Source: Candidatus Shapirobacteria bacterium
Lineage (GTDB): Bacteria; Patescibacteriota; Microgenomatia; UBA12405
Direction of reading: 5' to 3'
NCBI GenBank assembly: GCA_041665485.1
Contig: JBAYIT010000002.1
Span: forward strand, 5,867-69,866
DNA: 64,000 nt
Below, one piece after another: positions 1 to 48,705 of the stretch. Within the stretch, counting starts at the first letter, position 1; each line of letters begins with the position of its first letter. Position numbers and translations under genes: made by a program. Under the pieces are notes generated by a model that did no database searches, was not told the origin of the DNA, and saw only the letters and a program-made list of their open reading frames with translations.

Positions 1-657
1 TCCGCTATTCTTGGTCTATTTCTTTATTTTAAAAACAATCGTCCTTCACGTTATTTTTGGTTAATACTTTCTTGGTGGATCCTGCCCCTATTGGCCGATT
101 GCGCCTTTACCAAAGTTTTTACCGCCCGCTATGTTCTTTACACTCTTCCTCCACTCCTTATCCTCATTGCTCTTGGTGTTAGCCAATTTAGTCGTTATCG
201 TTTGTTTCCCTTCCTGTTATTTATAATATTGATTCCTAATATTATCTGGATTAAAAACATGTCCTTTAGGCCATTTACTGCCGTAATTCCGCCTTCCGAA
301 TCCGGTTATCTTCGCGATTGGACTTCGGGGTGGGGGATTAGAGAAGCCTCTGTCTATTTTAAATCCAGGGCCAAAGAAGCCAACATTATCGTTGGTACTG
401 AAGGTTTTTTTGGTACTCTCCCCAATGGCCTGCAAATATATACTGACCACGTTAACCAACTTACTGTTATTGGTACCGGTGTTGATATTCATCAAGTGCC
501 TCCGGAGCTGATTAATGCCAAAAATTACGGTGATGAGGTCTATCTCCTCTTTAATGCCTCCCGTCTCAAGCTCACTCCAGATGATTTTTCCAAACTTAAA
601 CTAATCCAGTCATGGATCAAACCAGACGGCGACAGTTTATTATTGCTTCAGCTGTGA
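1..657 (+). CDS. C-terminal fragment of an ArnT/PMT-like GT-C membrane glycosyltransferase paralog (5' end lies outside the window)
   Basis: The frame is open from nt 1; the ORF track starts at a TTG at 91 but no stop lies upstream. The C-terminal domain resembles those of the other ArnT-like paralogs here ('GWGIREASVYF...IIVGTEGFFG'). Confidence 0.5.
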   Translation, partial: SAILGLFLYFKNNRPSRYFWLILSWWILPLLADCAFTKVFTARYVLYTLPPLLILIALGVSQFSRYRLFPFLLFIILIPNIIWIKNMSFRPFTAVIPPSESGYLRDWTSGWGIREASVYFKSRAKEANIIVGTEGFFGTLPNGLQIYTDHVNQLTVIGTGVDIHQVPPELINAKNYGDEVYLLFNASRLKLTPDDFSKLKLIQSWIKPDGDSLLLLQL

Positions 658-673
658 TCTGCTAAACTCAACT

Positions 674-1912
674 ATGTCAAAACCTTGGTTAATTTTCTTA
701 ATTACCATCGCCCTTTTCCTCCGTTTCTTTCTTATGGCTTTTTGTTACCACCCCGATCTTGCCGGCCAAAGCCTTTCCACCTACTTTTGGGGATTTAAAA
801 ATGTTACCAATGTTTACGACCATCTTCTTTCTTTACCTCCAACTCACCCTCTTGTCAAAAACTTTGGTATTAGTGACATTTTTATTTATCCGCCCTTAAC
901 CTACTTTACTCTCGGCACCTTCGAAAAAGTTTTTGGCTTCACTGGCCTTGGTCAATTTCTCGAAACTCTTATGTCTGGTGCCAATGTTTATCAAATTAGT
1001 AATCTTAATCTCTATCTTTTTCTTCTCAAATTACCTTATTTATTTTTTGATTTGGCTGTCGTTTACCTGCTTTATCGTTACTTTGATCAACCCCAAAATA
1101 AGCGCCTTTCCGCTCTCCTTTGGCTTTTTAATCCTGTCACTCTTTACGCCACTTTTGCCATGGGTGTTTTTGATATTATTCCTGTCTTTTTTACTGTTCT
1201 TTCGCTTTACCTTCTCAAGAATAAACATCTCCTTTGGGCTTCTTTATCAATCGGCTTCGGCATTGCCTTCAAAATGTACCCTATCTTTTTACTTCCCTTT
1301 CTCATTGCTCCGGCAAAAAATCTATCTACCAAAATCAAAATTATTGTCGTCGGGTTTCTGCCTCTCATTCTTACCAACCTCCCCTATATCTTCTCTTCTG
1401 CCTATCGCTATATGGTTTTTAGCCCCAAAAGCCAAAAAATGCTTTTTATGCAATGGCCACTTTCCGGCTCTGAAGGCATTTTTCCATTTATCTTTATCCT
1501 TACCTTCCTTTATCTTCTCGCTTCGTCACTTAAATCGTTTCGGCCCATCAAGGCCTATTATTTGGCTTTTTTTCTTATTCTCTTTTCTGTCACCCACTAT
1601 CATCCTCAGTGGTTTATCTGGGGAGCCCCTTTTTTAATCATCGAATTTATTAGTCATCGTCTTCGTCATCCTTGGTTATATCTTGGTTTGTTTTTGATTT
1701 ATGTTTTTATTGTTTTTACTTTCGAAAATTCTCTTTCCATCGGCCTTTTCGCTCCACTTAATCCCAGTCTTGCCCAATTTGTCGGCACCGCTAATTTGCT
1801 TTCCCAAAAAATTAATCTCGATCAAACCAAAAGTCTTTTTCGTAGTGTTTTTGCCGGTATTTCTCTTTATCTGACCTATGTCAATCTTAAAAAAATCGAT
1901 GTTCAAAAATAA
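674..1912 (+). CDS. Polytopic integral membrane protein, candidate GT-C family glycosyltransferase (DUF2029/GT87-like topology)
   Basis: 412 aa with about 10 hydrophobic segments and an ATG start at 674. Short N-terminal loop reads 'CYHPDLAGQS'. The internal ORF 933..1637 is a same-strand shadow. Confidence 0.6.
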   Translation: MSKPWLIFLITIALFLRFFLMAFCYHPDLAGQSLSTYFWGFKNVTNVYDHLLSLPPTHPLVKNFGISDIFIYPPLTYFTLGTFEKVFGFTGLGQFLETLMSGANVYQISNLNLYLFLLKLPYLFFDLAVVYLLYRYFDQPQNKRLSALLWLFNPVTLYATFAMGVFDIIPVFFTVLSLYLLKNKHLLWASLSIGFGIAFKMYPIFLLPFLIAPAKNLSTKIKIIVVGFLPLILTNLPYIFSSAYRYMVFSPKSQKMLFMQWPLSGSEGIFPFIFILTFLYLLASSLKSFRPIKAYYLAFFLILFSVTHYHPQWFIWGAPFLIIEFISHRLRHPWLYLGLFLIYVFIVFTFENSLSIGLFAPLNPSLAQFVGTANLLSQKINLDQTKSLFRSVFAGISLYLTYVNLKKIDVQK

Positions 1913-3581
1913 ATTTTTTTTTCCTATTCTTCTCTTGCTTTTAGTCCTGCCAGCCACTAGGTTCTTTTTTCGGTCAGGAGACTATTGGAATATGCACGAT
2001 GATATGCAGGTTATTCGTCAGCTTGATTTTGAGAAATGTCTAACTGATGGCCAGATACCCTGTCGTTGGGTTCCAGATTTAGGTTATGGCTACGGCTATC
2101 CCTTGTTTAATTACTACCCCCCATTGCCCTACATTGTTGGTCAAGTCTGGCGAACTGTCGGAGCTTCGTTTACTGACACTGTCAAGTTTACCGCCCTTAC
2201 CCAAATCATTCTCGGAGCTTTTTTTATGTATCTTCTTGGCGCCTCTCTTACCAATAAATGGGGGGGCTTGATTTCCGCTCTCTTTTTTACCTATGCTCCC
2301 TATCACGCTGTCAATATTTACATTCGCGGTGCTATGAATGAAGCTTGGGCAGCCACCTTTTTCCCCCTGGTATTATATTTCATTAGGCGGGCTATCCTTG
2401 ACTCAAAAGTAAAATATTATCTCGGTATCTCCCTCTCTTTCGGTCTTATTCTTCTGTCTCACAACCCCATGGCTTTGATTTTCGCTCCCCTGGCCATTCT
2501 TTGGTCTCTTTACTGGCTTTTTATTTCCCAAAAACAATTTTTAAAAACAATTGTCTCTTTGGCCATGTCGGTTGTTCTTTCGCTTTTATTTTCTGCCTTT
2601 TACACCCTTCCTCTCTTGGTCGAAACCAAGCTTGTTCAAATTGAATCCATGTTTTCTGGCTATTACCACTATTCTGTTCACTTCGCCACTATAAAACAGC
2701 TCTTTATTAGTAATTTTTGGGGCGACGGTCCATCGGTTTGGGGCACGGAGGACAAAATGTCCTTTATGATTGGTTACCTCCATTGGATTTTGCCCATCTT
2801 TGTTTTTATTGCCTATCTTTTTAAATTTAAAAAAAGTCACAAATTTATAGACTTATTTCCTCCGGCTCTGGTTCTAATTGGTTTTTTCTCTGCTTTCATG
2901 TCTCATGAACGTTCCACTCCCTTTTGGCAAATATTTCCCGTTATTCAAAATGTTCAATTTCCTTGGCGCTTCCTCAATCTAACTACTTTTATCTTTTCCA
3001 CCAGTATTATCTTTCTTGTCAATCTTATTAAGAAGCCCATTTTCTATGTGTTGATTATTACCAGTCTTCTTATTCTTAATCTTGGTTATTTTTATCCGAT
3101 TCATTCCGGGCCGGTCACTGATTCGCAAAAGTTTAGTGGCCAAAGCTGGCGTCTTCTCATCACCGCCAGTATTTATGATTATCTCCCCAAGTCAGCTGAA
3201 ACGGCCCCCAAGTCGCCATCCGTCGGGCTTATTGATGAAATAATCCCGTCAGACATTTCCCTTACTATCAAGAACGAAAAACACGGCACCGATTGGTTCT
3301 TTGTAAACTTTAATCTCAATAGCGACGCTCAAATTATCTTTGGTCAGCTGGACTTTCCCAACTTTTTAATTCTTGACCAAGATCAACCAATTCCCCATTT
3401 TACTGAAAACAAGCTTGGTCGGATTGGAGTTAATCTTAAAGCCGGTAATCATCAGCTTTTTGCCAAGCTTCAAAATACTCCCATCCGGACTCTTGCCAAT
3501 CTACTTTCTCTTGTCTCTTGGATTAGTCTATTTATCTGTTTAATTCGCTATCTGTGGCTGAAATTAACACCTCGGAAATAA
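1878..3581 (+). CDS. Large polytopic membrane protein, GT-C-like family B (paralog of 26367..27872)
   Basis: 567 aa. After TM1 comes the conserved motif 'HDDMQVIRQLDFEKCLTDGQIPCRW...PLFNYYPPLPY', matching 'QDDMHVFRLQEFHQCLIDGQIPCRY...PIFNFYPPLSY' in the paralog. Many TM segments, then a soluble C-terminal domain. The start may instead be M8 at 1899. Confidence 0.65.
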   Translation: MSILKKSMFKNKFFFPILLLLLVLPATRFFFRSGDYWNMHDDMQVIRQLDFEKCLTDGQIPCRWVPDLGYGYGYPLFNYYPPLPYIVGQVWRTVGASFTDTVKFTALTQIILGAFFMYLLGASLTNKWGGLISALFFTYAPYHAVNIYIRGAMNEAWAATFFPLVLYFIRRAILDSKVKYYLGISLSFGLILLSHNPMALIFAPLAILWSLYWLFISQKQFLKTIVSLAMSVVLSLLFSAFYTLPLLVETKLVQIESMFSGYYHYSVHFATIKQLFISNFWGDGPSVWGTEDKMSFMIGYLHWILPIFVFIAYLFKFKKSHKFIDLFPPALVLIGFFSAFMSHERSTPFWQIFPVIQNVQFPWRFLNLTTFIFSTSIIFLVNLIKKPIFYVLIITSLLILNLGYFYPIHSGPVTDSQKFSGQSWRLLITASIYDYLPKSAETAPKSPSVGLIDEIIPSDISLTIKNEKHGTDWFFVNFNLNSDAQIIFGQLDFPNFLILDQDQPIPHFTENKLGRIGVNLKAGNHQLFAKLQNTPIRTLANLLSLVSWISLFICLIRYLWLKLTPRK

Positions 3582-5011
3582 CCCGAAAAGCTACTTCGTC
3601 AGTAATTTTTTTATCATTACGTAACTTTGGCCTCCAGGCTGTTTCTCTGGTTGGTTTTTTTATTCTCACTCTTCTCCTTGGCACCGGAGAGGTTGGTCTT
3701 TTTGCTATAGTTGCCGAATCAGTTGCAATTTTTGCCTATTTTTCAGATGTCGGTCTGGCCTCAGCCCTAATTCAACAAAAAAAACCAATTTCTCAAATTC
3801 AATTAAGAACTACTTTTTTTATCCAACAAAGTCTGGTAATTATTGCTCTTTTGATAGTTCTCTATTCTTATCCTAAATTGGCTGTCGCCAAAAATTATGG
3901 TCTGCCCGAAACTCTGATCTTAACTGCTCTCTGTTTTTCTTTTTTGACTGCCTCTCTTAAAACCATCCCTTCAGTTTTACTTGAGCGTCATCTCAATTTT
4001 AAAACCATTTCTCTGGTAGATATCGTCGAAAATGTCAGCTTTTATCTTGTCGCCGTTATTTTTGCCCTACTAGGTTTTGGGGTTTATTCATATGCTATCG
4101 CTACTGTTGTCAGAAGTGCTCTTGGTCTTTTTCTTATTTACCATTATCAGCCTTGGCCCATCGGTATCTCATTTTCTCTTCACACTGCTAAAAAACTCTT
4201 TCGTTATGGTATTCCCTTTCAATTCAATTCTCTGATCGCTATGGCCAAGGACCGGTTATCAACCATTGTTGTTGCCGGTATCTTAGGCCGAGTTGAGTTC
4301 GGCTTTCTCTCTTGGTCTCAAAAGGGTCCGAGAATTCCCCTAAGCTTCATGGATGCCGTCATGCGGGTTACTTTTCCTGCCTTCTCCCGCCTCCGCCAAC
4401 AGCCGGAGCTACTTAAACGATCTTTAGAAAAAAGTGTTTTTTTTATTGCCTATTTTGTTTTTCCTCTTATGTCGCTTTTAGTTTTAGTCGCCCCTCATTT
4501 TATTGATCTCATTCCCAAATACAACAAGTGGCAACCAGCTCTGTTGCCGATGTATCTTTTCTGCCTAAACTACAGTATCGCCGCCATTACTACTCCCATA
4601 ACTAACGCCTTTAATGCCACTGGTAAAATTTTTCTTACTTCAAAATTTATGATCATGTGGACTGTTCTCACTTGGATTTTTTATCCTCTTCTTACCGCTA
4701 AGTTTGGTTTCGTTGGCACAGCCATTGCTGCTTTGATTGTCTCTTCAAGTTCTTTTATAGTTTGGTATTTTGCCGATAAAATCTACTCCGTTAATCTCTA
4801 TCTTGTTGTTGGTCACCCTTTCATTGCTTCTGTTTTGGCTCTATCTATCGGTTTATATATTCTTGATACCTATCCCCAAAACCCATTGATGTCAATTATC
4901 ACCGGTTCGTTGATTTTTACCGCTTTTTACCTTAGTTATAGTTACCTTTTTCTCAAGTCGCATCTTCTTTGGTTTATTAATCAACTAAAAAAAAGTTTTA
5001 ATGTCACTTAA
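3554..5011 (+). CDS. wzx: Wzx-type oligosaccharide flippase (MOP superfamily, 'polysaccharide biosynthesis protein')
   Basis: 485 aa with about 12-14 TM segments. The N-terminus 'SSVIFLSLRNFGLQAVSLVGFFILTLLLGTGEVGLFAIV...' is typical of O-antigen/teichoic acid flippases. Confidence 0.65.
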   Translation: MAEINTSEITRKATSSVIFLSLRNFGLQAVSLVGFFILTLLLGTGEVGLFAIVAESVAIFAYFSDVGLASALIQQKKPISQIQLRTTFFIQQSLVIIALLIVLYSYPKLAVAKNYGLPETLILTALCFSFLTASLKTIPSVLLERHLNFKTISLVDIVENVSFYLVAVIFALLGFGVYSYAIATVVRSALGLFLIYHYQPWPIGISFSLHTAKKLFRYGIPFQFNSLIAMAKDRLSTIVVAGILGRVEFGFLSWSQKGPRIPLSFMDAVMRVTFPAFSRLRQQPELLKRSLEKSVFFIAYFVFPLMSLLVLVAPHFIDLIPKYNKWQPALLPMYLFCLNYSIAAITTPITNAFNATGKIFLTSKFMIMWTVLTWIFYPLLTAKFGFVGTAIAALIVSSSSFIVWYFADKIYSVNLYLVVGHPFIASVLALSIGLYILDTYPQNPLMSIITGSLIFTAFYLSYSYLFLKSHLLWFINQLKKSFNVT

Positions 5012-6644
5012 GCATCTATTAGTCTTAGTTGCCGGTTCCATCCTCCTTTCTGTCACCATGATTCGTAGTGGTAGTCTTTACTCTTATGGTTTTGGTTATT
5101 GGGGTCCAAACGGTCACGACGCCATCTGGCATCTGGCCGTAATTGAACAGTCGAGGCTGGCTATCCCCCCTCAAAACCCTATTTTTTCCGGGGCAGAACT
5201 TACCAATTATCACTGGGGTTACGATCTTTTTGCTAGCTTTATTAGCTCTCTCACCGCTCTTAATGTTCAAACCATTTATTTTAAAATTATTCCGTTTTTA
5301 ACTGCTTTTTTTTATGGTTTATTTGCCTATCTATTTTTTTTCGAACTTACCAGAAACAAAATTGGTGCTCTAATTTTTATTGGCCTTAACTTTTTCGCCG
5401 GCTCTTTAGGCTGGCTAATTACTCTATTCCAAAACGGATCCTTGGGTGGTGAGTCGCTTTTTTGGTCGATGCAAGGAGCCTCCACTCTCATTAACCCGCC
5501 TTTTGCCTTATCTCTGGTTTTCCTGTTTCTGGGTTTATGGCTAACACTCAAAAAGTTTAATCCGTTTTTAGTTGGAGCAATTTTTGGCTTGCTGGCTCTA
5601 ATTAAAATCTATTCCGCCATCCTCTTTGGTCTTTCTCTCTTTCTTTATCTTATTGTAGATATTAAAAACAAAACATATTATCTTAGGCTTTTTGGAGCCT
5701 TTTCACTCTTAACCATTATTGTTGCTTTATTTCTCGGTTATCTAAACTCCGGCTCCCTTGTTGTTTGGCAACCTTTTTGGTTTGTTCATTCCTTAATTGA
5801 ATCAACTGACAAATTGTATTGGCCCTCCCTTGCCTCCTACCGTCAAAGTTTATCTCAAAATTTGTCTTTAATTAAACTTCCGCTTTTCATTATTATTGAA
5901 ACTTTCCTAGCTGTAGTTTTTCTTTTGGGTAATTTTGGCACCCGAGTTTTTGGTGTATTTTCCATTAAAACAAAATTAGAAATATCTTTAATCCTCAAAA
6001 CTATCATTTTCTTATCAATTTTATTTCCTCTCTTTTTTATCCAAAAAGGCACAGCTTGGAATACTATTCAGTTTCTTTACTATGGCCTTATTTTTTCCAA
6101 TATTTATTTTGCTATCTTTTTGTCGAAACTCATTCAAACTAAGCGTTTGGCTATTTTTTCAATACTATTTTTAGTTACTGCCCTGACTTCTCTTGGAACT
6201 CTTAAAGACTATTTTGGCAATCCTCCGCCGTCGTCCTTACCCATAGCAGAGATCCAAGCTCTGTCTTTTCTGAAACACCAACCATCCGGTATTGTTTTAA
6301 GCTATCCCTATGATCCTTATCTTAAATCTGGCCTAACTACTCCCATTCCCTTGTATCTTTATGAAACTACCGCTTACGTCTCGGCTTTCTCTGGTAAGGT
6401 AAGTTTTTTGGCTGACGAGATGAACGCCGATATCTTAGGTCTTAATTGGCGTTCTCGCCGAAAAGATATCACCGACTTTTTTCTAACCAAAGATAAGTTT
6501 TTCGCCCGTGGCTTTCTTCTAAACAATCGAATTGACTATATCTATCTTCTCTCTGGCCAACATCTTCCACTTTCGTTAGTCGAGTTAGAAATTGATCAGA
6601 TTTACAACCAAAGCGGTATAACGATTTACCGTGTCAGAAGGTGA
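5001..6644 (+). CDS. Polytopic membrane protein with C-terminal soluble domain; possible Wzy-like polymerase/ligase or another GT-C
   Basis: 547 aa with more than 10 TM segments followed by a hydrophilic tail of about 150 aa. Lies directly downstream of the flippase. No diagnostic motif recognised. Confidence 0.5.
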   Translation: MSLKHLLVLVAGSILLSVTMIRSGSLYSYGFGYWGPNGHDAIWHLAVIEQSRLAIPPQNPIFSGAELTNYHWGYDLFASFISSLTALNVQTIYFKIIPFLTAFFYGLFAYLFFFELTRNKIGALIFIGLNFFAGSLGWLITLFQNGSLGGESLFWSMQGASTLINPPFALSLVFLFLGLWLTLKKFNPFLVGAIFGLLALIKIYSAILFGLSLFLYLIVDIKNKTYYLRLFGAFSLLTIIVALFLGYLNSGSLVVWQPFWFVHSLIESTDKLYWPSLASYRQSLSQNLSLIKLPLFIIIETFLAVVFLLGNFGTRVFGVFSIKTKLEISLILKTIIFLSILFPLFFIQKGTAWNTIQFLYYGLIFSNIYFAIFLSKLIQTKRLAIFSILFLVTALTSLGTLKDYFGNPPPSSLPIAEIQALSFLKHQPSGIVLSYPYDPYLKSGLTTPIPLYLYETTAYVSAFSGKVSFLADEMNADILGLNWRSRRKDITDFFLTKDKFFARGFLLNNRIDYIYLLSGQHLPLSLVELEIDQIYNQSGITIYRVRR

Positions 6645-7599
6645 TAAACTTATACTTATTATGACCAAGAACAAACCATTAATTTCTGCCGTTATTAATA
6701 TTCACAATGAAGTCAAGACACTCGAGAAATGTCTTCGCTCAATCCGTGGTTTTGCCGACGAAATAATTATTATTGATATGGAGTCAACCGATAATGGTGC
6801 AGAAATTGCCAAGAATTTTAATGCCAAGGTTATTTCTCATCGTTTTGTTAAATATGTTGAACCGGTAAGAAATTTTGCCCTTTCTAAAACTACCGGCAAA
6901 TGGGTATTGATACTTGACCCGGATGAATATCTCAACACTACCCTTAAGAAAGAACTTTTGCGTGTTACTCAAAGAAAAGACGTTGACTTTGTTCGTATCC
7001 CCAGAAAAAATTTAGTTTTCGGGCGCTGGTTACGTCATTCCAACATGTGGCCTGACTATCTTGTTCGTTTTTTTAAAAATGGCCATGTTTCCTGGAAAAA
7101 AGAGATCCATTCTCAGCCAACAACTAAAGGTAATGGTCTTAACCTTCTTGACTCTGAAAAGTTGGCTATTCGTCATCAAAACTATCCTTCCATTAATAGT
7201 TTCATTCAACGAGCTGTTCGCTATTCTTCCGTTCAGGCCGAAGAGCTTATGTCTACCGACTACAAGCTCAAGACCAGTGATTTTATTCTCAAACCAATTC
7301 AAGAGTTTAATAGTCGTTTTTTTCGTGGTGAAGGTTTTAAAGATGGGCTTCATGGCTTAATATTTTGTTTGCTTCAGGCTTTCGCGATCTGTCTCATTTA
7401 TATTCGTCTATGGGAAAAAACAGGTAGCCCAGATAAGCCACTTGCCAAAGACTCTTTCGTTTCTGCTGCCCAAGAGGCCAATTTCGAATTCAACCATTGG
7501 TTTAGCTGGTACTACATTAAGGAAAACAATCAAAATTTCTTTAAAAATTTCTTTATTCGTTTTCGTCAGTTCATTAATCGTCTTACTAAAAATCTCTAA
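6631..7599 (+). CDS. GT2 glycosyltransferase with C-terminal TM helices (ArnC/GtrB-like; candidate polyprenyl-phosphate sugar synthase)
   Basis: 'ISAVINIHNE...ADEIIIIDMESTDNG' GT-A N-terminal region and 'DPDEY' DXD motif. C-terminus has the hydrophobic segment 'LIFCLLQAFAICLIYIRLW'. The likely true start is M11 at 6661. Confidence 0.7.
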   Translation: MSEGDKLILIMTKNKPLISAVINIHNEVKTLEKCLRSIRGFADEIIIIDMESTDNGAEIAKNFNAKVISHRFVKYVEPVRNFALSKTTGKWVLILDPDEYLNTTLKKELLRVTQRKDVDFVRIPRKNLVFGRWLRHSNMWPDYLVRFFKNGHVSWKKEIHSQPTTKGNGLNLLDSEKLAIRHQNYPSINSFIQRAVRYSSVQAEELMSTDYKLKTSDFILKPIQEFNSRFFRGEGFKDGLHGLIFCLLQAFAICLIYIRLWEKTGSPDKPLAKDSFVSAAQEANFEFNHWFSWYYIKENNQNFFKNFFIRFRQFINRLTKNL

Positions 7600-7602
7600 T
7601 TA

Positions 7603-8523
7603 ATGACTAGAGTCAATATTGTTATTCTTAACTGGAACCAACTCCAATTAACCCTCGATACTATTGCTTCGGTTAAGAAAATAAGTCATAAATATTTCCA
7701 TTACCGAATTACTCTGGTTGATAACGGCTCCACCGACAACTGTCAAGCCGAACTTAATAAAGCTTTTTATGTTGACTCCCAAGTTAATCTTATTTTCCAT
7801 CGTCAAAATCTTGGCTATGTTGACGGCAATAATTCAGGTATAAAACTTGGGCTAAGTGGCAACTTCGACTATACTCTGATTCTTAACAATGATGTTCAAG
7901 TCGACCCAGATTTTCTCGACAACCTAATAAAATTTTCGGAAAGTAATCCTCAATATTCTATCCTTGGTCCTAAAATTTATTTTGCTCCCGGCCATGAGTT
8001 TCACTTATCCCGTTATCAAAAAAAAGACCTCGGCCGGGTTATTTGGTCTGCCGGCGGTCATATCGACTGGGGCAATGTTATTGGTAGTAATGTCGGAGTC
8101 GATGAAGTTGACACCGGCCAATACAATTCGATTAACGATACTGTCGATTTTATTTCCGGTTGCGCTATTTTAGTTAAAAACCAGGTTTTTCAAAAAATCG
8201 GTCTTTTTGATTCCTGCTATTTTCTTTATCTTGAAGATGCTGACTTTTGTCAAAGGGCTCTTCGCGCCGGTTTCAAAATGGCTTGTGTTCCTAATTCAAT
8301 CATTTGGCATATTAATGCCGGATCTTCCAGTAGTGGTGGTAATCTTCATCATTATTTCTTGAGCCGCAATCGTCTGGTCTTTGGTTTCCGCTACGCCAAT
8401 TTCAAAACTAAACTAGCCCTACTCCGTCAGTCTATCGCCATTCTTTTTAATCCGCCATCCTCTTGGCACCGTCGTGGAGTTATTGATTATTTTTTAAATA
8501 AACTTAACCGTGGTAGTTGGTAA
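7603..8523 (+). CDS. GT2 family glycosyltransferase
   Basis: 'VNIVILNWNQ...VDNGSTDN', then 'NNDVQVDPDF' and 'FCQRA' motifs typical of GT-A/GT2 enzymes. Confidence 0.75.
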   Translation: MTRVNIVILNWNQLQLTLDTIASVKKISHKYFHYRITLVDNGSTDNCQAELNKAFYVDSQVNLIFHRQNLGYVDGNNSGIKLGLSGNFDYTLILNNDVQVDPDFLDNLIKFSESNPQYSILGPKIYFAPGHEFHLSRYQKKDLGRVIWSAGGHIDWGNVIGSNVGVDEVDTGQYNSINDTVDFISGCAILVKNQVFQKIGLFDSCYFLYLEDADFCQRALRAGFKMACVPNSIIWHINAGSSSSGGNLHHYFLSRNRLVFGFRYANFKTKLALLRQSIAILFNPPSSWHRRGVIDYFLNKLNRGSW

Positions 8524-9292
8524 TAGTTTAAGTGTTATTATCGTTGCCGGCAATGAAGAAAAGATGATTGCCGATTGTCTTAAAAGTTGCGCTTTTGCTG
8601 ACGAAGTCATCATTTGCCACAACTCAACCGACAACACCATTAAATTGGCCAAACAAATTTATCCTAAAGTTATAATTAAAGAGAACAAACTTAACCAACA
8701 AAAATTTGATTTTGCCGTCGCTAGAAACATCGGCTTTAAAGAAGCTCGTTCATCTTGGGTTTTGTATTTAGACTGTGATGAGAGAATTACCTTGGCCCTA
8801 TCCAAAGAAATTATTAAAATAACTAAGTCCAAAGAAGTTCCCTTTACTAACTACGACATCCCCCGAGCCAATTACTTTTTGGGTCAGCGGGTTAGATATG
8901 GTGGTACTTATCCAGATTACGTTAAAAGGCTCTTCTTGAGAAGTAGTTTTTCCGGTTACGTCGGTTCACTTCATGAACAGCCTCAAATTTCTGGTCCTAG
9001 CTCTGTTTTAAAAAACGACTTAATTCATTTAACCCACCGCGATCTGACTTCAATGTTGGAGAAAAGCATAAAGTGGACTGTTATTGAAGCCGAAATGCTT
9101 CACGATTCCGGTCATCCACCGGTAGTTTGGTGGCGATTTCCTCGGATGATGTTCACTAAATTTTGGCAAAGATTTGTAAAGGAACAAATGTGGCGCGACG
9201 GTATCGTTGGTCTTATTTCCGTCATTTTTGAAGTCTTCGACACCTTTATAATTTATGCCAGATTATGGGAAATACAACAAAAAAGGAATTAA
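8510..9292 (+). CDS. GT2 glycosyltransferase with C-terminal TM helix (ArnC-like)
   Basis: 'LSVIIVAGNEEKMIADCLKSC..DEVIICHNSTDNT' and a 'DCDE' DXD motif. C-terminal hydrophobic segment 'GLISVIFEVFDTFIIYARLWE'. Confidence 0.7.
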   Translation: MVVGNSLSVIIVAGNEEKMIADCLKSCAFADEVIICHNSTDNTIKLAKQIYPKVIIKENKLNQQKFDFAVARNIGFKEARSSWVLYLDCDERITLALSKEIIKITKSKEVPFTNYDIPRANYFLGQRVRYGGTYPDYVKRLFLRSSFSGYVGSLHEQPQISGPSSVLKNDLIHLTHRDLTSMLEKSIKWTVIEAEMLHDSGHPPVVWWRFPRMMFTKFWQRFVKEQMWRDGIVGLISVIFEVFDTFIIYARLWEIQQKRN

Positions 9293-10452
9293 GAGCCGGT
9301 ATATACGACCCCTATCTTGACACTCTTGGAGGAGGGGAGAGATATTGTCTTACTGTTGCCGAGATTTTACTCAAACAGGGATATACTGTCGATCTCTTTT
9401 GGTCAGGAAACAAAGAAGTAATCGCCAAAGCTAAAGATAGGTTTTCTCTTGATCTCGACGACATGAATTTGGTTTCCGACATCTTCTCTTCTCCTGCTAA
9501 TTTAACTGACATTGCCGACAATCCCGAAATCATTAGAATGCTTCTTGCTAATCCCACCCATCGTAAAATGGCCAGTCTTTGGCAAAGATTCAAAACCACC
9601 TCCAAGTACGACCTCTTCTTCTATCTTTCTGATGGTAGTTTGCCTTTTCTATTTTCCAAAAAAAATCTCTTACACCTTCAAGTTCCGTTTAACTATTTAC
9701 CAAACCAATGGCAGAAAGTCAGCAATTATCTTAAGTTAAAACTCATCAATAAAGTTATCTGCAATTCCCGTTTTACTAGTCGTTTTATTTCCAAGTTACT
9801 TTCAAAAAAGCCGTCTGTTCTTTACCCTCCCGTCGACGTTGATCGTTTTAGTCCAAGTCCTGTCAAAGAAAACATAATTCTCTCTGTTGGTCGATTTGAC
9901 AATATCCTTAACGCCAAAAGGCAAGATATATTAATAGATATTTTTAAAGAATTAATTACTAAAAACAGCCTTCCTGGTTGGAAATTAGTTTTAGCCGGTG
10001 GTAGCCACCAAAAAAGTCAAGACAATAAATATCTTAATCTCCTTATTGATCAAGCAAAGGGTTATCCGATTGAATTTCTCGTCGATCCTCCCTTTGCTGA
10101 TCTTGTCAATCTCTATTCAAAAAGTAAAATCTATTGGCATGCCGCCGGATTTGGTGTTGATGAGAATCAAGAACCTCAAAAAACTGAACATTTTGGAATA
10201 GTTGCTGTCGAGGCTATGGCCAGTGGTTGTGTGCCGGTGGTAATTAATAAAGGTGGTCTTCCCGAAATTATTAACCCCGGTATTAATGGTTACCTTTGGT
10301 CTGATTTTCCTCAAGCAATCGAATCAACTATGAAATTAATTAATGATCGCGGTCTATTAGAAAAGCTATCTCATAGGGCTTTAGGTGATTCAAAAAAGTT
10401 TTCTAAAAGTAACTTTGAGTCTGACCTTTTATCCATTTTACAAAACAAATGA
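9265..10452 (+). CDS. GT4 (GT-B fold) glycosyltransferase
   Basis: The C-terminal half carries the EX7E-type donor-binding motif 'EHFGIVAVEAMASGCVPVVINKGGLPEII'. Confidence 0.75.
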   Translation: MGNTTKKELRAGIYDPYLDTLGGGERYCLTVAEILLKQGYTVDLFWSGNKEVIAKAKDRFSLDLDDMNLVSDIFSSPANLTDIADNPEIIRMLLANPTHRKMASLWQRFKTTSKYDLFFYLSDGSLPFLFSKKNLLHLQVPFNYLPNQWQKVSNYLKLKLINKVICNSRFTSRFISKLLSKKPSVLYPPVDVDRFSPSPVKENIILSVGRFDNILNAKRQDILIDIFKELITKNSLPGWKLVLAGGSHQKSQDNKYLNLLIDQAKGYPIEFLVDPPFADLVNLYSKSKIYWHAAGFGVDENQEPQKTEHFGIVAVEAMASGCVPVVINKGGLPEIINPGINGYLWSDFPQAIESTMKLINDRGLLEKLSHRALGDSKKFSKSNFESDLLSILQNK

Positions 10453-11321
10453 AAATATCGGCCATTATTACCAGCTGGAACGGCAAAAAATTACTCCGAA
10501 AAAACCTTCTCATTGTTATTAAAAATTCTCCTGAGGTTTCCGAGTTTATTGTTGCCGATGACGCTTCAACTGATTCAAGTATTGCATACTTAAAAAAAAT
10601 CAAGAAACGGTATCCTCAACTTCGTATTTTAACTACCCCCCATAATCTCGGTTTTTCTGCTAATAGCAACCGTGCCGTTCGCCTTGCCAAAGGCGACCTG
10701 GTTGTTCTTTTAAATAATGATATTTCCCCCCATCCGGGCTTTCTTAAAGCATCTCTAAAACACTTTTCCGACTCGAAAGTTCTTGGGGTTGGTTTTTGCG
10801 AATTAGGCAACGAAAATTGGGCAAAAATTTTTTGGAGTGGAGGTTACATTCAACACGAATCCGGAAGTCCTGTTGACAAACCCCACCCCACCGCCTGGGT
10901 TTCCGGCGGGGGTTGTATCGTCAGACGTCAATGTTTTCTAAAACTAGGCGGTTTTGATCCTGCCTTTGAACCTTTTTATTATGAGGACGCCGATCTTGGC
11001 CTCCGCACTTGGGAGCAGGGCTATAAATTAATCTGGGAGCCAAAATCTATCATCGAACATCGTCATGAAAGCACCATGTCCCGCTTTCCTAAGCGCCACC
11101 TGGATTATGTTAAAGAGCGTAACCGCCTTCTTCTTACCTGGCGCCATATTACCGACAAAAAGTTAATTTGGCAAAATAAATTAGCTATGGTCGGTCGTGT
11201 TATATCTGGCCCCAATTATATTAAAATCATCCGCGCCGCCAAACGCCAAATGGCCAAATATCCGATTAATACTCACCATCACCGAATCGATGTTCAAGGC
11301 TTAATCAAGATGTTTTCATAA
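10449..11321 (+). CDS. GT2 family glycosyltransferase
   Basis: 'ISAIITSWNGKKLL...FIVADDASTDSS' and 'YEDADLGLR'. The ATGA start overlaps the upstream stop. Confidence 0.75.
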   Translation: MKISAIITSWNGKKLLRKNLLIVIKNSPEVSEFIVADDASTDSSIAYLKKIKKRYPQLRILTTPHNLGFSANSNRAVRLAKGDLVVLLNNDISPHPGFLKASLKHFSDSKVLGVGFCELGNENWAKIFWSGGYIQHESGSPVDKPHPTAWVSGGGCIVRRQCFLKLGGFDPAFEPFYYEDADLGLRTWEQGYKLIWEPKSIIEHRHESTMSRFPKRHLDYVKERNRLLLTWRHITDKKLIWQNKLAMVGRVISGPNYIKIIRAAKRQMAKYPINTHHHRIDVQGLIKMFS

Positions 11322-12638
11322 ACTTTTTACTCTCAAACTATCGTTTTTAATCAAACTCCAACAAAACCAAACATATAAACCCGCATTAACCAAAGATAAA
11401 GGCAATCCAGCCCAGTAATTACCCGCGGTTAGTGCCCACCTAACCGGCCACAAGAATCCGGGATACCACCAATGTCGGAATAGGTTTAACCAAAAAATAA
11501 GACTCATCAGTAGCCACGGTCGGAATAACTTCGGATTCCAAATGGTTATAATTAGTCCTGTAACTACACCCATGTAATAATATCTCTCCAACATATTCGT
11601 CAAAAAAAGCCACCCGCCGGCACTTACTATAAACAAAGCACTAAAGATCGCTTCTTGACTAATCCCTTTCTTTAATTTTTTAATTGCCAAAAAATAACAG
11701 CCAGCAAACAACATTAATCCCCACAATTTTCCCGATACACCAAAAAATAACTGATTTTGATTGTAGGCCTTATCTAGAGTAAAAATATGCCAAAAATTAT
11801 AGGAGTTAGTTGTTAGTCTAAATTCTGCTCGATAAAAAACCTTTTTAACAACTGTTTCCATCGAATATTGTAAAGGGTTTTGTTTGGCTGAAAACGGTAT
11901 CACATAGGCTAAAGTTAGTCCTGTCACCAAAACCGCCCCCATCAAAAAACTTTTTAGTTTTAAACCTACCATTGGCCAAATAACTAAAAAAAGTGGCACC
12001 ACTAATACTGCCGTTGGTTTTAATGACACCGCCAACCACAAAGAAAGCAACGAACCCCAAAAATTTTTTGGTATCAGTAAAAAAGATGTCAAAACAAAAA
12101 GATACGCCAACGAATCCGTTTGTCCCCATAAACTACTAACATACCAACTAAAAGGGGAGAGCCAATAAACCAACGGCCAAGCTAGCGGTTTTTTAGTTTT
12201 TTTCTTTGCTATGGAGTAAAGCAAAACCCCAATCAACATGTCAGCCAAAATAGATAATAACTTCATCGTAAATAAGTATCCCTGTTCAAATGGAATTTCA
12301 GGCGACACTAACGCCTCAAAATTAGTTCCCCAAACGTAAAATCCTCGAAAAATCTCTAGCGGAAATACTGTATACAATCCATTTGCTAAGCGGGGAATCA
12401 CCCATATCAATTGCCAATAAAGCCACTTTTCAGCTCCATACATCAAGCTCATTAATGGTGGGTGATTCGGCCAAGAAAAAATCCACACCGGATTCTCATA
12501 AAAACCAGTTCCTCCATTACTATAAATATAATTTCCCCAACCCGCCTGACATAATATATCCGAGTGAAACACCACCGTTGAGACTAACAATCTTCCTAGT
12601 AATACTAATCCTAACAGCAAATACACTCCTTTCTGCAT
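11316..12638 (-). CDS. Polytopic integral membrane protein, candidate GT-C family glycosyltransferase
   Basis: 440 aa with more than 10 TM segments, a short N-terminal loop after TM1 and Trp-rich loops. Convergent with 10449..11321 and overlaps it by 6 nt. Confidence 0.55.
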   Translation of the reverse strand: MQKGVYLLLGLVLLGRLLVSTVVFHSDILCQAGWGNYIYSNGGTGFYENPVWIFSWPNHPPLMSLMYGAEKWLYWQLIWVIPRLANGLYTVFPLEIFRGFYVWGTNFEALVSPEIPFEQGYLFTMKLLSILADMLIGVLLYSIAKKKTKKPLAWPLVYWLSPFSWYVSSLWGQTDSLAYLFVLTSFLLIPKNFWGSLLSLWLAVSLKPTAVLVVPLFLVIWPMVGLKLKSFLMGAVLVTGLTLAYVIPFSAKQNPLQYSMETVVKKVFYRAEFRLTTNSYNFWHIFTLDKAYNQNQLFFGVSGKLWGLMLFAGCYFLAIKKLKKGISQEAIFSALFIVSAGGWLFLTNMLERYYYMGVVTGLIITIWNPKLFRPWLLMSLIFWLNLFRHWWYPGFLWPVRWALTAGNYWAGLPLSLVNAGLYVWFCWSLIKNDSLRVKSL

Positions 12639-12752
12639 CCACCATTAGTCTAACATTTTACTGCCACCAATAAAAACGAAATCCAGCATCTCTCTGGACG
12701 GATATTCTACTCTTTTACGCTTAAAAATTGATACACTTACTCAAGGTAAGAT
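12639..12752. promoter_or_regulatory. Divergent intergenic/promoter region between minus-strand 11316..12638 and plus-strand 12753..13409
   Basis: The largest non-coding gap in the window (114 nt), AT-rich. A TTGATA hexamer lies upstream of a TAAGAT-like element, but the spacing is poor and no confident -35/-10 can be called. Confidence 0.25.
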
Positions 12753-13409
12753 ATGTTGTTCAAATTTGTTTATCTCATTTTCATTATTAGTCCCTTTTTT
12801 GTTGGCAAGATTTACCCGTTTTGGGTTTATTTACTCATCATCTTCGCCTACATTGCCTCCTCCAAATCAAAGTTATTCATACTTCCAGTCATTTTTGTAC
12901 TATTCTTTGTCAATCTTCATGTTAACAGTCTTTTTGGTCTAAGTCGTCAGTTAAAACCAGATTTCAATCTAGAAAAAATAAACATCACCAGTCCAATTAG
13001 TATTCAAAAAGTAGCCCAATATTACTACGACGACGTCTATACACCCTATCGAATCCGCCACTTTCTTTATAGCCAATGGCTCACCGTTTTTGTTTGGATC
13101 AGTTCTGTTTTAAAATTATTGTCACCGATATTTTGGGTAAGGTTAATGGGTTTTAGTGGTAGTATCCTTATTTTTTTAGGTGTTATCGAATACATTAAAA
13201 ATGATTTTTCACCAAGATATTGGTTCTGGTGGTTTTTTATAATAATTTTTAGTTCCGGGCTCGGAATTAATCTTGACACCAGGAATTCTATTTTTCTCTC
13301 CCTACCCATACTAATAAATTTGGTAATCCTGGGTTTCAAGTCTAAACTATTTATTTCTATCCAAAAATATTGGTGGCTATTACTTTTTGTTGACTTCATC
13401 TTAAAATGA
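12753..13409 (+). CDS. Small integral membrane protein (about 6 TM), unknown function
   Basis: 218 aa and very hydrophobic. First gene after the divergent intergenic region 12639..12752. Confidence 0.45.
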   Translation: MLFKFVYLIFIISPFFVGKIYPFWVYLLIIFAYIASSKSKLFILPVIFVLFFVNLHVNSLFGLSRQLKPDFNLEKINITSPISIQKVAQYYYDDVYTPYRIRHFLYSQWLTVFVWISSVLKLLSPIFWVRLMGFSGSILIFLGVIEYIKNDFSPRYWFWWFFIIIFSSGLGINLDTRNSIFLSLPILINLVILGFKSKLFISIQKYWWLLLFVDFILK

Positions 13410-15001
13410 GTAATAAACACTTTGTCCTATTTTTAATTTTAATTTCCGTGTTCGGTTTTTACTTACGAACCAAAAACATAGCCACTAACCCGCCGCACTT
13501 GGGCAATGACGAAATCTCTATTGCCTTTGACAGCTATTCGATTAGAACCGTTGGCAAAGATGAACATGGTAGATCTTGGCCGTTATCTTTCATGTCCCAC
13601 CGAAGCTATAAGGCTCCTCTTTACGCCTATCTTAACACCCCGTTCAATTATATTTTTGGTAATAACGAGTATGGCATCAGAATGTTGTCAGCCATTTCCG
13701 GCACCTTACTAATACTTATTATTGGACTTCTCGGAAAAACTTCATCCAACACTTCCATCGGTATCTTAAGTGCCATTATTATTGCTATTACTCCAAAAGC
13801 AATTATGGCTTCCAGAATAGGCTATGAGGCTAATTTGGCCTTAACCATCATGTCTTTTGGCGTTTTAGCTATGATTTATTATCGATTTGCCAAAAAAACC
13901 ATTTGGCTCATTGTCGCCGGGGTGTTTTTGGGATTATCTGTCTGGGGTTACCATACTCAATGGGGTCTGGCTCCAATGTTAGCTTTCTGTTTACCGATGC
14001 TCTTTAGACCTAAAATCAAATTTACCAAATGGTGGCCAACGTGGATATTGTTAGTGGTCATTGTTTTTCCGATTTATCTTGATTTTTACCAAACCCAGCT
14101 TTCTGACTCACACAATCGGGCCAGCTCGCAAATTTGGTATCAAGATGGTCAACTTAATGACTATCTCAAAAATTCTCCAGACAATAAAGTTAAAAAAATC
14201 GCCGTCTTACTTATTTCTCCGATCAATAATTATATTGAGCATTTCAGCTTTGACACCCTTTTTGGTGACGGTTTGGGTATGTTCGAACGAACCTCACCGC
14301 TTGAATTTGGCTGGTTTTTACTTCCCTGTTTACCATTGCTAATTGTCGGGCTAATCAAAGTTAACACAATCTTTGGTGATAATAAAAATTGGCTTCTATT
14401 ATGGATGGCTTTGTCCCCAATTATCCCTGCCACCACTTACGGTGGGGTTGCTGCCGTCAGAAATCTCTCAATTATGGTGCCACTATCGATCATCACAGCT
14501 GGTGGCTGGTGGTATCTGAAAAAACACAAACCAATAATTTTTCTTTTAACCTCGTCTTTACTTCTTCTCCATCTTTTAATTTTTCTCCCCACCATCTTCG
14601 TTCATTTTCAAAAAAGTTCTGGCAATTATTTTCAGTTCGGATACAAGCAATCATGGGAAAAGATAAAACCAGTGGTCAAAAACTACCAACATGTTATTGT
14701 TGAGTCGAGATTCGGTCGCTTTGGTCAATTCGTCGGTGTGCCACACTTGTACTTTGGCTATTTTGGTGCTTTTCCAGTCGAGGCCATGCAATCCAAAACC
14801 AACGAAAACGGTCGAATGAAAATTGACAAATTCGAATTTGGTCACGTTGATTGGATGGTAGAAGAAATTCAGCCTAAATCGATCTATGTTGTTTCCACCA
14901 TTAATCCCATTGTTGCTAATGCTATTGGTAAACTAAATCAAATTGAAGAAATAATAACTCCCGATAATCAATCTCAATTTTTAATCTATGCCACCAAATA
15001 A
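13406..15001 (+). CDS. ArnT/PMT-like GT-C membrane glycosyltransferase (paralog 1)
   Basis: N-terminal TM helix then 'NPPHLGNDEISIAFDSYSI...GRSWPLSF'. The D-E loop motif is characteristic of the PMT_2/ArnT family. Conserved C-terminal domain 'FGYKQSWEKIKPVVKNYQHVIV...YFGYF'. Confidence 0.7.
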   Translation: MSNKHFVLFLILISVFGFYLRTKNIATNPPHLGNDEISIAFDSYSIRTVGKDEHGRSWPLSFMSHRSYKAPLYAYLNTPFNYIFGNNEYGIRMLSAISGTLLILIIGLLGKTSSNTSIGILSAIIIAITPKAIMASRIGYEANLALTIMSFGVLAMIYYRFAKKTIWLIVAGVFLGLSVWGYHTQWGLAPMLAFCLPMLFRPKIKFTKWWPTWILLVVIVFPIYLDFYQTQLSDSHNRASSQIWYQDGQLNDYLKNSPDNKVKKIAVLLISPINNYIEHFSFDTLFGDGLGMFERTSPLEFGWFLLPCLPLLIVGLIKVNTIFGDNKNWLLLWMALSPIIPATTYGGVAAVRNLSIMVPLSIITAGGWWYLKKHKPIIFLLTSSLLLLHLLIFLPTIFVHFQKSSGNYFQFGYKQSWEKIKPVVKNYQHVIVESRFGRFGQFVGVPHLYFGYFGAFPVEAMQSKTNENGRMKIDKFEFGHVDWMVEEIQPKSIYVVSTINPIVANAIGKLNQIEEIITPDNQSQFLIYATK

Positions 15002-15800
15002 AACATCTCTCTCCATCATCATCCCCACCTGGAACACTGCCGAAATCACCCTTCGTTGTGTCAATAGTATTGTCAAACATCTTGGTAAGTTAGTCGAAAT
15101 AATTGTCGTTGATAACGGCTCTACCGATAGTACCCAAGATGTTTTAAAAAAAACTACCGTTAAATATGTTAAGTTAGACAAAAATTACGGTTATGCCACT
15201 GCCTGCAATGCCGGCGCTAAAGTAGCCACTTCCGAATATCTTCTATTTTTAAATTCAGATATGGAACTTATCGACAAGGAAGTTTTGGCCATGGTCAATT
15301 TTTACAAAAAAAATATTAATTGCGGTCTAGTCGGCCCACAATTTTTCAACCCTGACCTCTCTCCCCAAGGCTCTGTCTTCCCACCCCAAACTCCACTCAA
15401 TGCATTTAGGGAATTTTGGTTACACCAAAAAACCTTCTCTAAGTATTTCCCAAAAACCGATAAACCGGAAAAAGTCTGGGCCATTTCCGGTGGTGCTGTT
15501 TTAATTTCTAAAAAAAATTACCAAAGTGTTGGCGGTTGGAGCCAAAAATATCACATGTACTACGAAGATTTGGACCTTTGTCGCCAAACCAGAAATAGGG
15601 GATTCTCAATCTATTATTTTCCAAGTTGCCGCTTTATCCATCGTCATGGTGCTAGTGGTGCCAATATCGCCAATGCCAATAACCAATGGCGTCGCCTAAT
15701 TAATGGCTCAAAAATCTATCATGGTCTATTTTTGCATTACCTCATTAACCTAATTATATGGTCGGGCCAAAAATGGCAGAAAACTTTTTTAAAAACTTAA
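14988..15800 (+). CDS. GT2 family glycosyltransferase
   Basis: 'LSIIIPTWNTAEITLRCVNSI...IIVVDNGSTDST' and 'YYEDLDLC'. Confidence 0.75.
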   Translation: MPPNKTSLSIIIPTWNTAEITLRCVNSIVKHLGKLVEIIVVDNGSTDSTQDVLKKTTVKYVKLDKNYGYATACNAGAKVATSEYLLFLNSDMELIDKEVLAMVNFYKKNINCGLVGPQFFNPDLSPQGSVFPPQTPLNAFREFWLHQKTFSKYFPKTDKPEKVWAISGGAVLISKKNYQSVGGWSQKYHMYYEDLDLCRQTRNRGFSIYYFPSCRFIHRHGASGANIANANNQWRRLINGSKIYHGLFLHYLINLIIWSGQKWQKTFLKT

Positions 15801-19980: not shown

Positions 19981-20552
19981 ACCAAAAACCCAACCAATAA
20001 CACAGGGAGTATTATTATTGACTTTTGCATTAGTTGGCCAGTCTTTGATAAAGCGTATTGCCAATCACCACCCCACTTATAGTAAATTACCATATCAAGC
20101 TTTTGTCCCCTAGTCCCGAAAGCCAATTTTCCATCAACTATTTTGGTAGGCAAAATTTCAACTATGTATCTTCTGTCTTTGGAATTAGTAATTGTTTGAA
20201 AATCAAGCCGAGCTCGACTAGTATCACCAAAGTTGAATCCGCTAAATAACTGACGATAAATCTCCAAACCACCACTCTCTCTGATTACAATCTCGAGTTG
20301 ATCTCTACTTTCCAAGTTTGGGTTCTTAAACAATACGTCAACCCGATTTAAATTGTCATAACTTGACACAAATTCCGATTTGAACAATGACATATCAGCC
20401 AGCCTAATAAAAGTCAATTCTAAATTACTATTATCAGCAATCGCCAACTTTGACGGTATCAGATTAACCAAAAAGAAAACCCCAAAGTAAGAAACCAAGA
20501 TCAACAGCCAACCAATGATAACTTGCTTTGATTTACTTTTTAAATTTTGCAC
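19974..20552 (-). CDS. Small membrane-anchored protein (N-terminal TM helix plus a soluble domain of about 150 aa), unknown function
   Basis: 192 aa. N-terminal 'VIIGWLLILVSYFGVFFLVNLI' is the only hydrophobic segment. Embedded between GT-C genes in one operon. Confidence 0.5.
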   Translation of the reverse strand: MQNLKSKSKQVIIGWLLILVSYFGVFFLVNLIPSKLAIADNSNLELTFIRLADMSLFKSEFVSSYDNLNRVDVLFKNPNLESRDQLEIVIRESGGLEIYRQLFSGFNFGDTSRARLDFQTITNSKDRRYIVEILPTKIVDGKLAFGTRGQKLDMVIYYKWGGDWQYALSKTGQLMQKSIIILPVLLVGFLVW

Positions 20553-21747: not shown

Positions 21748-21749
21748 TT

Positions 21750-24655: not shown

Positions 24656-24712
24656 CTTACACAGTATAAAACAACTTAGGACTCAATTTTGGTATAAAAT
24701 ATATAAGTTCCA
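24656..24712 (+). promoter_or_regulatory. Divergent intergenic region with candidate extended -10 element (tgGTATAAAAT) for the plus-strand block starting at 24713
   Basis: Only 57 nt between divergently transcribed operons. 'TGgTATAAAAT' lies about 18 nt upstream of the ATG with no SD, so a short or leaderless 5'UTR is implied. Confidence 0.3.
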
Positions 24713-38266: not shown

Positions 38267-38270
38267 ACCC

Positions 38271-47674: not shown

Positions 47675-47693
47675 ATCAAAATTCTATCATCTC

Positions 47694-48683: not shown

Positions 48684-48705
48684 CCCAAAATGCTATCATA
48701 CAAAA

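Follow-up and report, generated by a model that had tools for sequence, protein, structure and literature searches.

The bacterial GT-C glycosyltransferases of the YfhO family and of the PMT_2 type take their sugar from undecaprenyl-phosphate-sugar, a donor that is made by a cytoplasmic GT2 enzyme and moved across the membrane by a flippase of GtrA or Wzx type, and they pass it to acceptors outside the cell such as teichoic acids, wall polysaccharides and Ser/Thr-rich protein segments (PMC8035078; PMC12041528). A further family, PF10131 (PTPS_related), is listed in the Pfam GT-C clan CL0111 as being of 'function unknown' (PMC7801869). Here we analyse two genes related to these families, both located on a stretch of 64,000 nucleotides (nt) from a Candidatus Shapirobacteria bacterium (GenBank assembly GCA_041665485.1, contig JBAYIT010000002.1, positions 5,867 to 69,866 of the forward strand), the whole of which is referred to below as the window. 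Gene A (1878..3581, + strand) is an intact open reading frame (ORF) of 567 amino acids (aa) that encodes a PF10131/YfhO-like GT-C membrane protein, and gene B (26367..27872, + strand) encodes its 501-aa paralog. By analogy with characterised enzymes, and with a probability of roughly 0.8, we consider A and B to be outward-facing GT-C transferases that use a lipid-phosphate-linked donor.

Family placement of A and B

A and B are full-length paralogs, and their likeness is far beyond chance (31% identity across 545 columns, E=3e-67 by BLASTP). An earlier note, made from the letters of this DNA alone, had quoted a peptide string from each of the two ORFs, both of which are present in the translations, and had related the two proteins over their first ~100 residues; the alignment of 545 columns extends this likeness to the whole length. 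The description of both products as large polytopic proteins was also accurate, A having 12 predicted transmembrane (TM) helices. When all ORFs of the window were searched with the family profile (hmmsearch), A and B were the sole matches and no third copy was found.

In the Pfam scan, A passes the cut-offs of both PF10131 (29.1 bits, cut-off 26.4; aa 77–414 on model positions 1–316 of 621) and PMT_2 (30.1 bits, cut-off 26.1; aa 101–239), while B reaches 19.3 bits on PF10131, under the cut-off, and has no PMT_2 match. The same scan gave no match of A or B to YfhO (PF09586), PMT (PF02366) or MIR domains; no NCBIfam model matches either protein, and when the PDB was searched by sequence neither A alone nor the family profile gave a meaningful match. 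Relatives are more readily placed. PF10131 is matched by 25 of 49 aligned members (E<0.01, best 1.4e-15), PMT_2 by 15 and YfhO by 13, and some relatives match PF10131 strongly, at 1e-15 to 6e-20. B orthologs match PF10131 and the C-terminus of YfhO, certain B-type relatives scoring 28.8–37.7 bits on the latter (cut-off 28.5); these B-type matches lie mostly at model positions ~743–834 of 835, in the C-terminal beta domain and the last helix, and those of the aligned members fall within positions ~750–825, which correspond to the outer C-terminal domain. The suggestion in the earlier note that the family might be YfhO-like or PTPS-related was therefore right. Its further suggestion of an undescribed GT-C clade does not hold, since PF10131 is already part of clan CL0111 and NCBI already names A 'glycosyltransferase family 39 protein' and several relatives either likewise or '6-pyruvoyl-tetrahydropterin synthase-related protein'; B is a 'hypothetical protein'. 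The databases thus already have a place for the family, though a marginal one. Neither the fold class nor the Pfam family nor the NCBI name is new, and the same goes for the classification of A and B itself. Literature searches on PF10131, the PTPS-related name, GT-C enzymes in the candidate phyla radiation and Microgenomates glycosyltransferases returned nothing on the family.

The family is large. Over 2,715 relatives were found for A and 849 for B by a word-indexed search, and an exhaustive profile search of 1.84 billion cluster representatives yielded 18,283 clusters at 50% identity with E<=1e-3, 6,035 of them with E<=1e-30. A scan of GTDB, with one genome per species, gave at least 577 matched stretches; the best 80 come essentially all from Patescibacteria (Shapiro-, Woese-, Ames-, Davies- and Blackburnbacteria). 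Many GTDB records with an A-type operon (L009, L010, L013–L015 and others) bear the title 'uncultured Gammaproteobacteria bacterium', and two more name Clostridia and Pseudomonadales, respectively; such titles look like placeholder or wrong names for Patescibacterial metagenome-assembled genomes.

The extent of both ORFs required some attention. The NCBI call for A begins at M39 (nt 1992) and gives 529 aa. This start was rejected, as it would remove the conserved K-rich N-terminus and TM helix 1. Homologs of A are 560–590 aa long and cover 98–99% of the long form; the conservation of the N-terminus and TM1 in these proteins better supports the long start, either ATG 1878 or the possible alternative ATG 1899 (M8). 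For B, the longest reading is 26316..27872, opening at TTG 26316, and the start adopted here, ATG 26367, is that of the NCBI call and agrees with homolog N-termini.

Predicted fold and membrane topology

An AlphaFold2 model of A built from the 49-sequence alignment has a pLDDT of 91.1 and a pTM of 0.91. In a Foldseek search of the PDB, GT-C enzymes took every one of the top 35 places, 17 with E<=1e-3. They include yeast, human and canine STT3 (best E=3e-5), AglB, PglB, EmbA/B/C, DPY19, ALG12 and Pmt4, as well as AftD (TMq 0.44) and ArnT 5f15 (TMq 0.42, root-mean-square deviation 6.6 Å). The earlier note had proposed a GT-C fold and had named a transporter fold as the outcome that would speak against it; none occurs among the significant PDB matches of A. 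A GT-C fold for A, and hence its place in the GT-C superfamily, is thus supported by the predicted model.

The model contains 12 TM helices with the N-terminus inside. The first helix (aa 14–31; 1917..1970, + strand) follows a K-rich cytoplasmic N-terminus, in which aa 1–13 comprise four K/R and no D/E. The first outer loop (aa 32–97) is 66 residues long and contains two helices, and a second long outer loop (aa 239–299) ends in a low-confidence tip, as is frequent in GT-C enzymes. In the predicted secondary structure, an extracytoplasmic C-terminal domain of 130 residues (aa 405–534; 3090..3479, + strand) is mainly a beta-sandwich (strands 452–531), with weak Foldseek matches to glycoside hydrolase beta-sandwich domains (E 0.4–1), and is followed by a C-terminal TM anchor helix (aa 535–563; 3480..3566, + strand).

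The cytoplasmic loops of A are 2–4 residues long and charged only by K/R; together with both short termini they contain 12 K/R and no D/E. The long loops and the invariant polar residues all lie on the opposite, outer face. By the positive-inside rule, this distribution of charges would place the loop with the D-D pair outside the cell, where the earlier note had supposed its first extracytoplasmic loop to be.

Conserved residues of the outer face

The loop-1 motif of A (aa 41–82; 1998..2123, + strand) reads D41-D42-M...R47...C54...Q59-I-P-C62-R63...YGYPLFNYYPP, and its counterpart in B, DDM...C...CR...FNFYPP, lies at nt 26466..26591. Conservation was counted over 366 family members. D41 is kept in 98% of them, D42 in 80% (with E in a further 5%), R47 in 98%, R63 in 99%, C54 and C62 in 90% each, N78 in 93% and Y80 in 98%. 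The loop 'DDMxV...CR...FN(Y/F)YPPL' that had been reported as conserved in the two genes is thus retained through the 366 relatives; written as a regular expression, it matches 271 of them. Near-invariant elsewhere are K103, P141-Y142, R150-G151, E155, H195, E249, H268, D292 and the Q360-F-P-W-R364 motif; D434, part of a conserved D434-Y-x-P-K, is D in 94% and E in 5%, and T534-P-I-R537, located just before or at the terminal helix of A, is invariant. All near-invariant residues are found in outer loops or at outer helix ends, about 20 invariant charged or aromatic residues being clustered in the outer loops. D41/D42 is proposed as the catalytic acid.

The two cysteines of loop 1 behave as a unit: both are present in 328 sequences, neither in 34, a clearly single cysteine in none, and two sequences have a gap at C54. 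This both-or-neither pattern suggests a C54–C62 disulfide, and it would also fit a location outside the cell.

The loop-1 motif lies N-terminal of the start of the PF10131 model (residue 77), and its precise form appears to be a trait of the subfamily. P0345, a relative with a C-terminal TPR domain that matches PF10131 more strongly (6e-20), has T-H-E in place of D-D-M and no Cys pair but shows both arginines and YGYPLFNFY. The general signature would accordingly be an acidic residue, two arginines and a YGYPLFN(F/Y)Y turn.

Gene neighbourhoods and gene fusions

A is followed by a gene for a Wzx/MOP-family flippase (3554..5011, + strand; NCBIfam MOP flippase, E=1e-34, under the curated cut-off), which shares its first 28 nt with the end of A and whose orthologs have Pfam Polysacc_synt matches. 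Next come a gene for a second GT-C-fold membrane protein of 547 aa (5001..6644, + strand), dealt with separately below, and five genes for cytoplasmic glycosyltransferases identified by Pfam (6631..11321, + strand), so that the order of the operon is A, Wzx, 547-aa GT-C, GT2, GT2, GT2, GT4, GT2. The same order is found beside A orthologs that are 53–55% identical (L001–L003). Among GTDB loci with enough flanking sequence, the gene directly after the A ortholog is Wzx in 45 of 49 species genomes, and Wzx is in turn followed by the 547-aa family in 39 of 44. A promoter and terminator scan of positions 1..13500 was uninformative on boundaries, promoter-like sites being at chance level and terminator-like matches scattered in T-rich coding sequence; the operon structure therefore rests on overlapping stop and start codons and on synteny. 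Upstream, the end of a gene for a 412-aa GT87-like polytopic protein (674..1912, + strand; PF09594, 27.7 bits, cut-off 25) overlaps the start of A; this protein has a paralog at 20533..21747.

B lies in a row of five GT-C genes. Directly upstream is a PMT_2/ArnT-like gene (24713..26377, + strand; PMT_2 E=1.4e-4, under the cut-off), a paralog of the other PMT_2-like genes whose position is conserved beside the B orthologs of L004–L006, and directly downstream are three genes of PMT/PMT_2 type by Pfam (27869..32607, + strand), which B orthologs have in the same row. GT2, GT4 and GT2 genes, recognised by Pfam and synteny, close the cluster (32608..35237, + strand). The last of these (34434..35237) has weak near-full-length NCBIfam matches to PpgS, ArnC and PgfS, all under their cut-offs. 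The arrangement is kept in three distant orthologs (39–44% identity). The claim that each of the two genes sits next to ArnT-like genes thus stands for B, flanked on either side by genes of PMT_2 type, and only loosely for A, with its GT87-like neighbour upstream and, downstream, Wzx and then a GT-C-fold gene.

Fusions between GT2 and GT-C domains occur in at least five separate 50%-identity clusters (P0250, P0251, P0255, P0272 and P0287), in proteins of ~820–830 aa with the GT2 domain at the N-terminus. Four are confirmed by Pfam (E 1e-23 to 1e-26), whereas P0272 has only BLASTP matches, to a GT2 of the window and to A. In four of the five, the GT2 part has its best window match in the GT2 encoded at 14988..15800 (32–39% identity, E down to 1e-62), a gene that sits behind a PMT_2 gene and adjoins neither A nor B. 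Since the N-terminus of the GT-C part is cytoplasmic, the fused GT2 domain would be cytoplasmic as well. In other relatives the fusion partner is a second GT-C, PMT_2 or TMEM260-like, or a set of TPR repeats. That the GT2 architecture recurs speaks for a genuine functional link, though some fusions could be gene-calling artefacts.

Tandem head-to-tail arrays of two or three family copies are present in 18 of the 80 GTDB loci, from distant Microgenomates including Woesebacteria and Amesbacteria (among them L047, L048, L056, L068, L070, L072, L073, L075, L079, L085 and L086). They suggest repeated local duplication.

Comparison with described GT-C enzymes

The TM core of A (aa 77–414) aligns with PF10131 above the cut-off, and about half of the sampled relatives match this family too. 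The differences are that only the first half of the model is matched, that B stays under the cut-off and that the model begins after TM1 and the D-D loop.

The YfhO proteins considered for comparison were YfhO of B. subtilis and S. aureus, which transfers GlcNAc to lipoteichoic acid, YfhO of L. monocytogenes, which acts on wall teichoic acid, and the streptococcal PgtC2 and PgfM1/M2 of protein O-glycosylation. As far as the model allows comparison, A and B would share with them the GT-C fold, an active site outside the cytoplasm and a C-terminal part in which a beta domain precedes the last TM helix; cytoplasmic GT2 enzymes and a flippase would be the partners in both cases. A and B are, however, ~300 residues shorter than the 835-position YfhO model, and their TM core is nearer to PF10131 and PMT_2. 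Moreover, A adjoins a Wzx-type flippase and has no adjacent partner of CsbB/GtrB type, and the host belongs to the Patescibacteria, not to the Firmicutes.

With ArnT and PMT_2 (PF13231; GT83/GT39-type), A shares the PMT_2 match at 30.1 bits, the Foldseek match to ArnT 5f15 and an acidic residue in loop 1. The seven PMT_2-like genes of the window form a separate paralog group, no BLASTP similarity to A or B being found at E<=1e-6. From the PMT enzymes of GT39, the family in the NCBI name of A, A differs in that it matches only the generic PMT_2 and lacks both PF02366 and the MIR domains that those enzymes have in their large luminal loop.

The oligosaccharyltransferases (OSTs) STT3, AglB and PglB (GT66) give the best Foldseek matches of A (E 3e-5 to 8e-4 over 450–580 columns), and coupling to Wzx is what would be expected of enzymes that use a flipped lipid-linked oligosaccharide. 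A and B nevertheless lack the W[WY]D motif, differ in the fold of the outer domain and show no likeness to OSTs at the sequence level. As for systems composed of a GT-A enzyme, a flippase and a GT-C transferase, A adjoins the conserved Wzx, and GT2 enzymes are found both in its operon and fused to its relatives, the GT2s being under the curated cut-offs for polyprenyl-phosphate sugar synthases.

Proposed function and alternative explanations

We propose that A and B each span the membrane with 12 TM helices, with both termini cytoplasmic, and expose an active site to the outside. This site would be formed by invariant outer-loop residues: D41/D42, R47 and R63 of loop 1, stapled by the C54–C62 disulfide, and further K103, R150/E155, H195, E249, H268, D292, H343, QFPWR360–364 and D434. 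By analogy with characterised GT-C enzymes, each protein would accept, at the outer leaflet, a sugar from a donor linked to polyprenyl phosphate and pass it to a cell-surface acceptor. The loop-1 aspartate may serve as the catalytic base or activate the acceptor, the basic residues and histidines may hold the lipid phosphate, and the C-terminal beta-sandwich may help to hold the acceptor. A would act within a conserved operon that builds and exports a surface glycan, and B within its own conserved context, the five GT-C genes in a row with GT2, GT4 and GT2 behind them. The likeliest donor is probably a polyprenyl-phosphate-monosaccharide, as for YfhO, ArnT and PMT, and the acceptor a surface protein or a glycopolymer of the wall or surface. 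Provided that the proteins are outward-facing GT-C transferases with a lipid-phosphate-linked donor, we favour a monosaccharide over an oligosaccharide donor by something like three to one.

Several observations weigh against this proposal. Pfam support is marginal, A lying only 2.7 bits above the PF10131 cut-off and B under it, and the model is matched only to about position 316 of 621 in A, B and their relatives. The Foldseek TM-scores of A are modest (0.37–0.44), in keeping with a core held in common and a periphery that differs. Neither a clear polyprenyl-phosphate sugar synthase of GtrB/Dpm1 type nor a GtrA-type flippase adjoins A, and when ten GT2 genes were typed with NCBIfam for such a synthase, all fell under the curated cut-offs. 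Finally, the tight coupling of A to Wzx fits an oligosaccharide donor equally well.

The last point leads to a different explanation, in which A handles a polyprenyl-diphosphate-linked oligosaccharide flipped by Wzx, either as a polymerase analogous to Wzy or as an en-bloc transferase or ligase analogous to OST, PglL or WaaL, in a Wzy-less Microgenomates pathway. The overlap of the A stop codon with the Wzx start and the adjacency of the two genes in 45 of 49 species speak for it, the five cytoplasmic glycosyltransferases of the operon could build a repeat unit, genes of Wzy, WaaL or LCP type were not detected among the ORFs scanned, and the best Foldseek matches of A are OSTs. Those Foldseek scores are, however, similar for OSTs and for ArnT/AftD. 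The WWDYG hallmark of OSTs is absent from both A and B, the outer domain of A is a beta-sandwich as is common to YfhO rather than the alpha/beta domain of OSTs, and the sequence affinity of A is to PMT_2 and YfhO, families with monosaccharide donors. In addition, the window showed no initiating phosphoglycosyl transferase, and the neighbour encoded at 5001..6644, with its AglB-like C-terminal domain, is a better candidate for an OST-like role. We consider this explanation of A unlikely. A broader idea, which we likewise regard as unlikely, concerns the operon as a whole: A, Wzx and the Pfam-less AglB/AftA-like GT-C protein, with the five cytoplasmic glycosyltransferases, might constitute an undescribed Wzy-independent route to surface glycans in Microgenomates, in which the GT-C proteins replace Wzy, WaaL or LCP in polymerising or attaching the flipped oligosaccharide.

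That A and B represent a GT-C clade outside the known classifications and described nowhere could be argued from the fact that NCBIfam has no model for either, that B is a 'hypothetical protein' under the PF10131 cut-off, that the DDM...C...CR loop falls outside the Pfam model and that no paper on the family was found. It is nevertheless improbable, as A exceeds the curated cut-offs of PF10131 and PMT_2, relatives reach 6e-20 on PF10131, this family belongs to the Pfam GT-C clan, and NCBI names relatives as GT39 or PTPS-related. Still harder to credit is the idea that A and B are transporters or scaffolds in which the conserved loop is structural. Nothing specific favours it, transporters are missing from the significant Foldseek matches, the invariant charged and aromatic residues are clustered outside as in GT-C active sites, and relatives are fused to GT2 catalytic domains. 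The proposal of an outward-facing transferase with a lipid-phosphate-linked donor is thus retained for A and B.

What is new here is the signature of the subfamily, namely the D-D loop with its co-varying Cys pair and QFPWR, to which come a confident model, the fusion partners and the two gene contexts that are conserved. Metagenomes are very rich in the PF10131/YfhO-like family (the 18,283 clusters noted above), and one member now comes with a signature, a model and a set of partners for experiment. A specialist would hardly be surprised by this; the value is modest and lies in the abundance of a family that is confined to a poorly understood lineage.

The GT-C-fold protein encoded at 5001..6644

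The 547-aa protein encoded between Wzx and the cytoplasmic glycosyltransferases has no Pfam or NCBIfam match. It has at least 1026 homologs; a Pfam match occurs in none of the 120 listed, and those that are named are called 'hypothetical protein'. Its AlphaFold2 model (pLDDT 90) predicts a GT-C enzyme, with an invariant GPNGHD loop after TM1. The Foldseek matches in the PDB include DPY19 (4e-8), STT3, AglB, PglB, AftA (TMq 0.54) and AftD, and the C-terminal alpha/beta domain matches the C-terminal globular domain of AglB (3vu0). The WWD motif is absent. A relationship to A and B as a third paralog was considered and rejected, the profile–profile comparison with the A/B family giving a probability of 1.4%. 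Being less described than A and B, this protein appears, on the strength of its model, to be the better candidate for an undescribed GT-C family.

Other features of the window

The window is rich in glycan genes, its 64 kb encoding at least 14 proteins of GT-C type and over 20 soluble glycosyltransferases. Positions 1..62535 form a dense glycan-biosynthesis island with seven PMT_2/PMT-like and two PTPS-like genes, two GT87-like genes, the GT-C gene recognised by fold only and a gene for a DUF2142 protein, along with more than 12 GT2 and ~9 GT4 genes and several genes for Pfam-less polytopic proteins of 400–455 aa; those at 11316..12638 and 15758..17119 are Pfam-less polytopic paralogs. Such a density is unusual for a genome of roughly 1 Mb. 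Patescibacteria have tiny genomes, and for many of them a life attached to host cells is assumed; the density of glycosyltransferase genes despite the tiny genome suggests that surface glycans are probably central to the life of these bacteria.

Some other genes of the island hint at further activities. The region 36148..42757 contains, among GT4 genes, two radical SAM genes, one of them with a B12-binding domain (41321..42757), and two class I methyltransferase genes, a set that may point to unusual sugar methylation or modification chemistry. At 47694..50236, a membrane acyltransferase gene (Acyl_transf_3) is followed by genes for an ABC-2 permease and an ABC ATPase resembling Wzm/Wzt, which suggests a second, ABC-transporter-dependent route of glycan export beside Wzx. 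On the minus strand, a 565-aa protein with C-terminal TPR repeats and an N-terminal part without family match (45977..47674) and the 564-aa DUF2142 membrane protein (55491..57185) may be further GT-C-type enzymes. A CofD-family gene, similar to 2-phospho-L-lactate transferase, lies between glycosyltransferase genes at 52043..53020 on the same strand.

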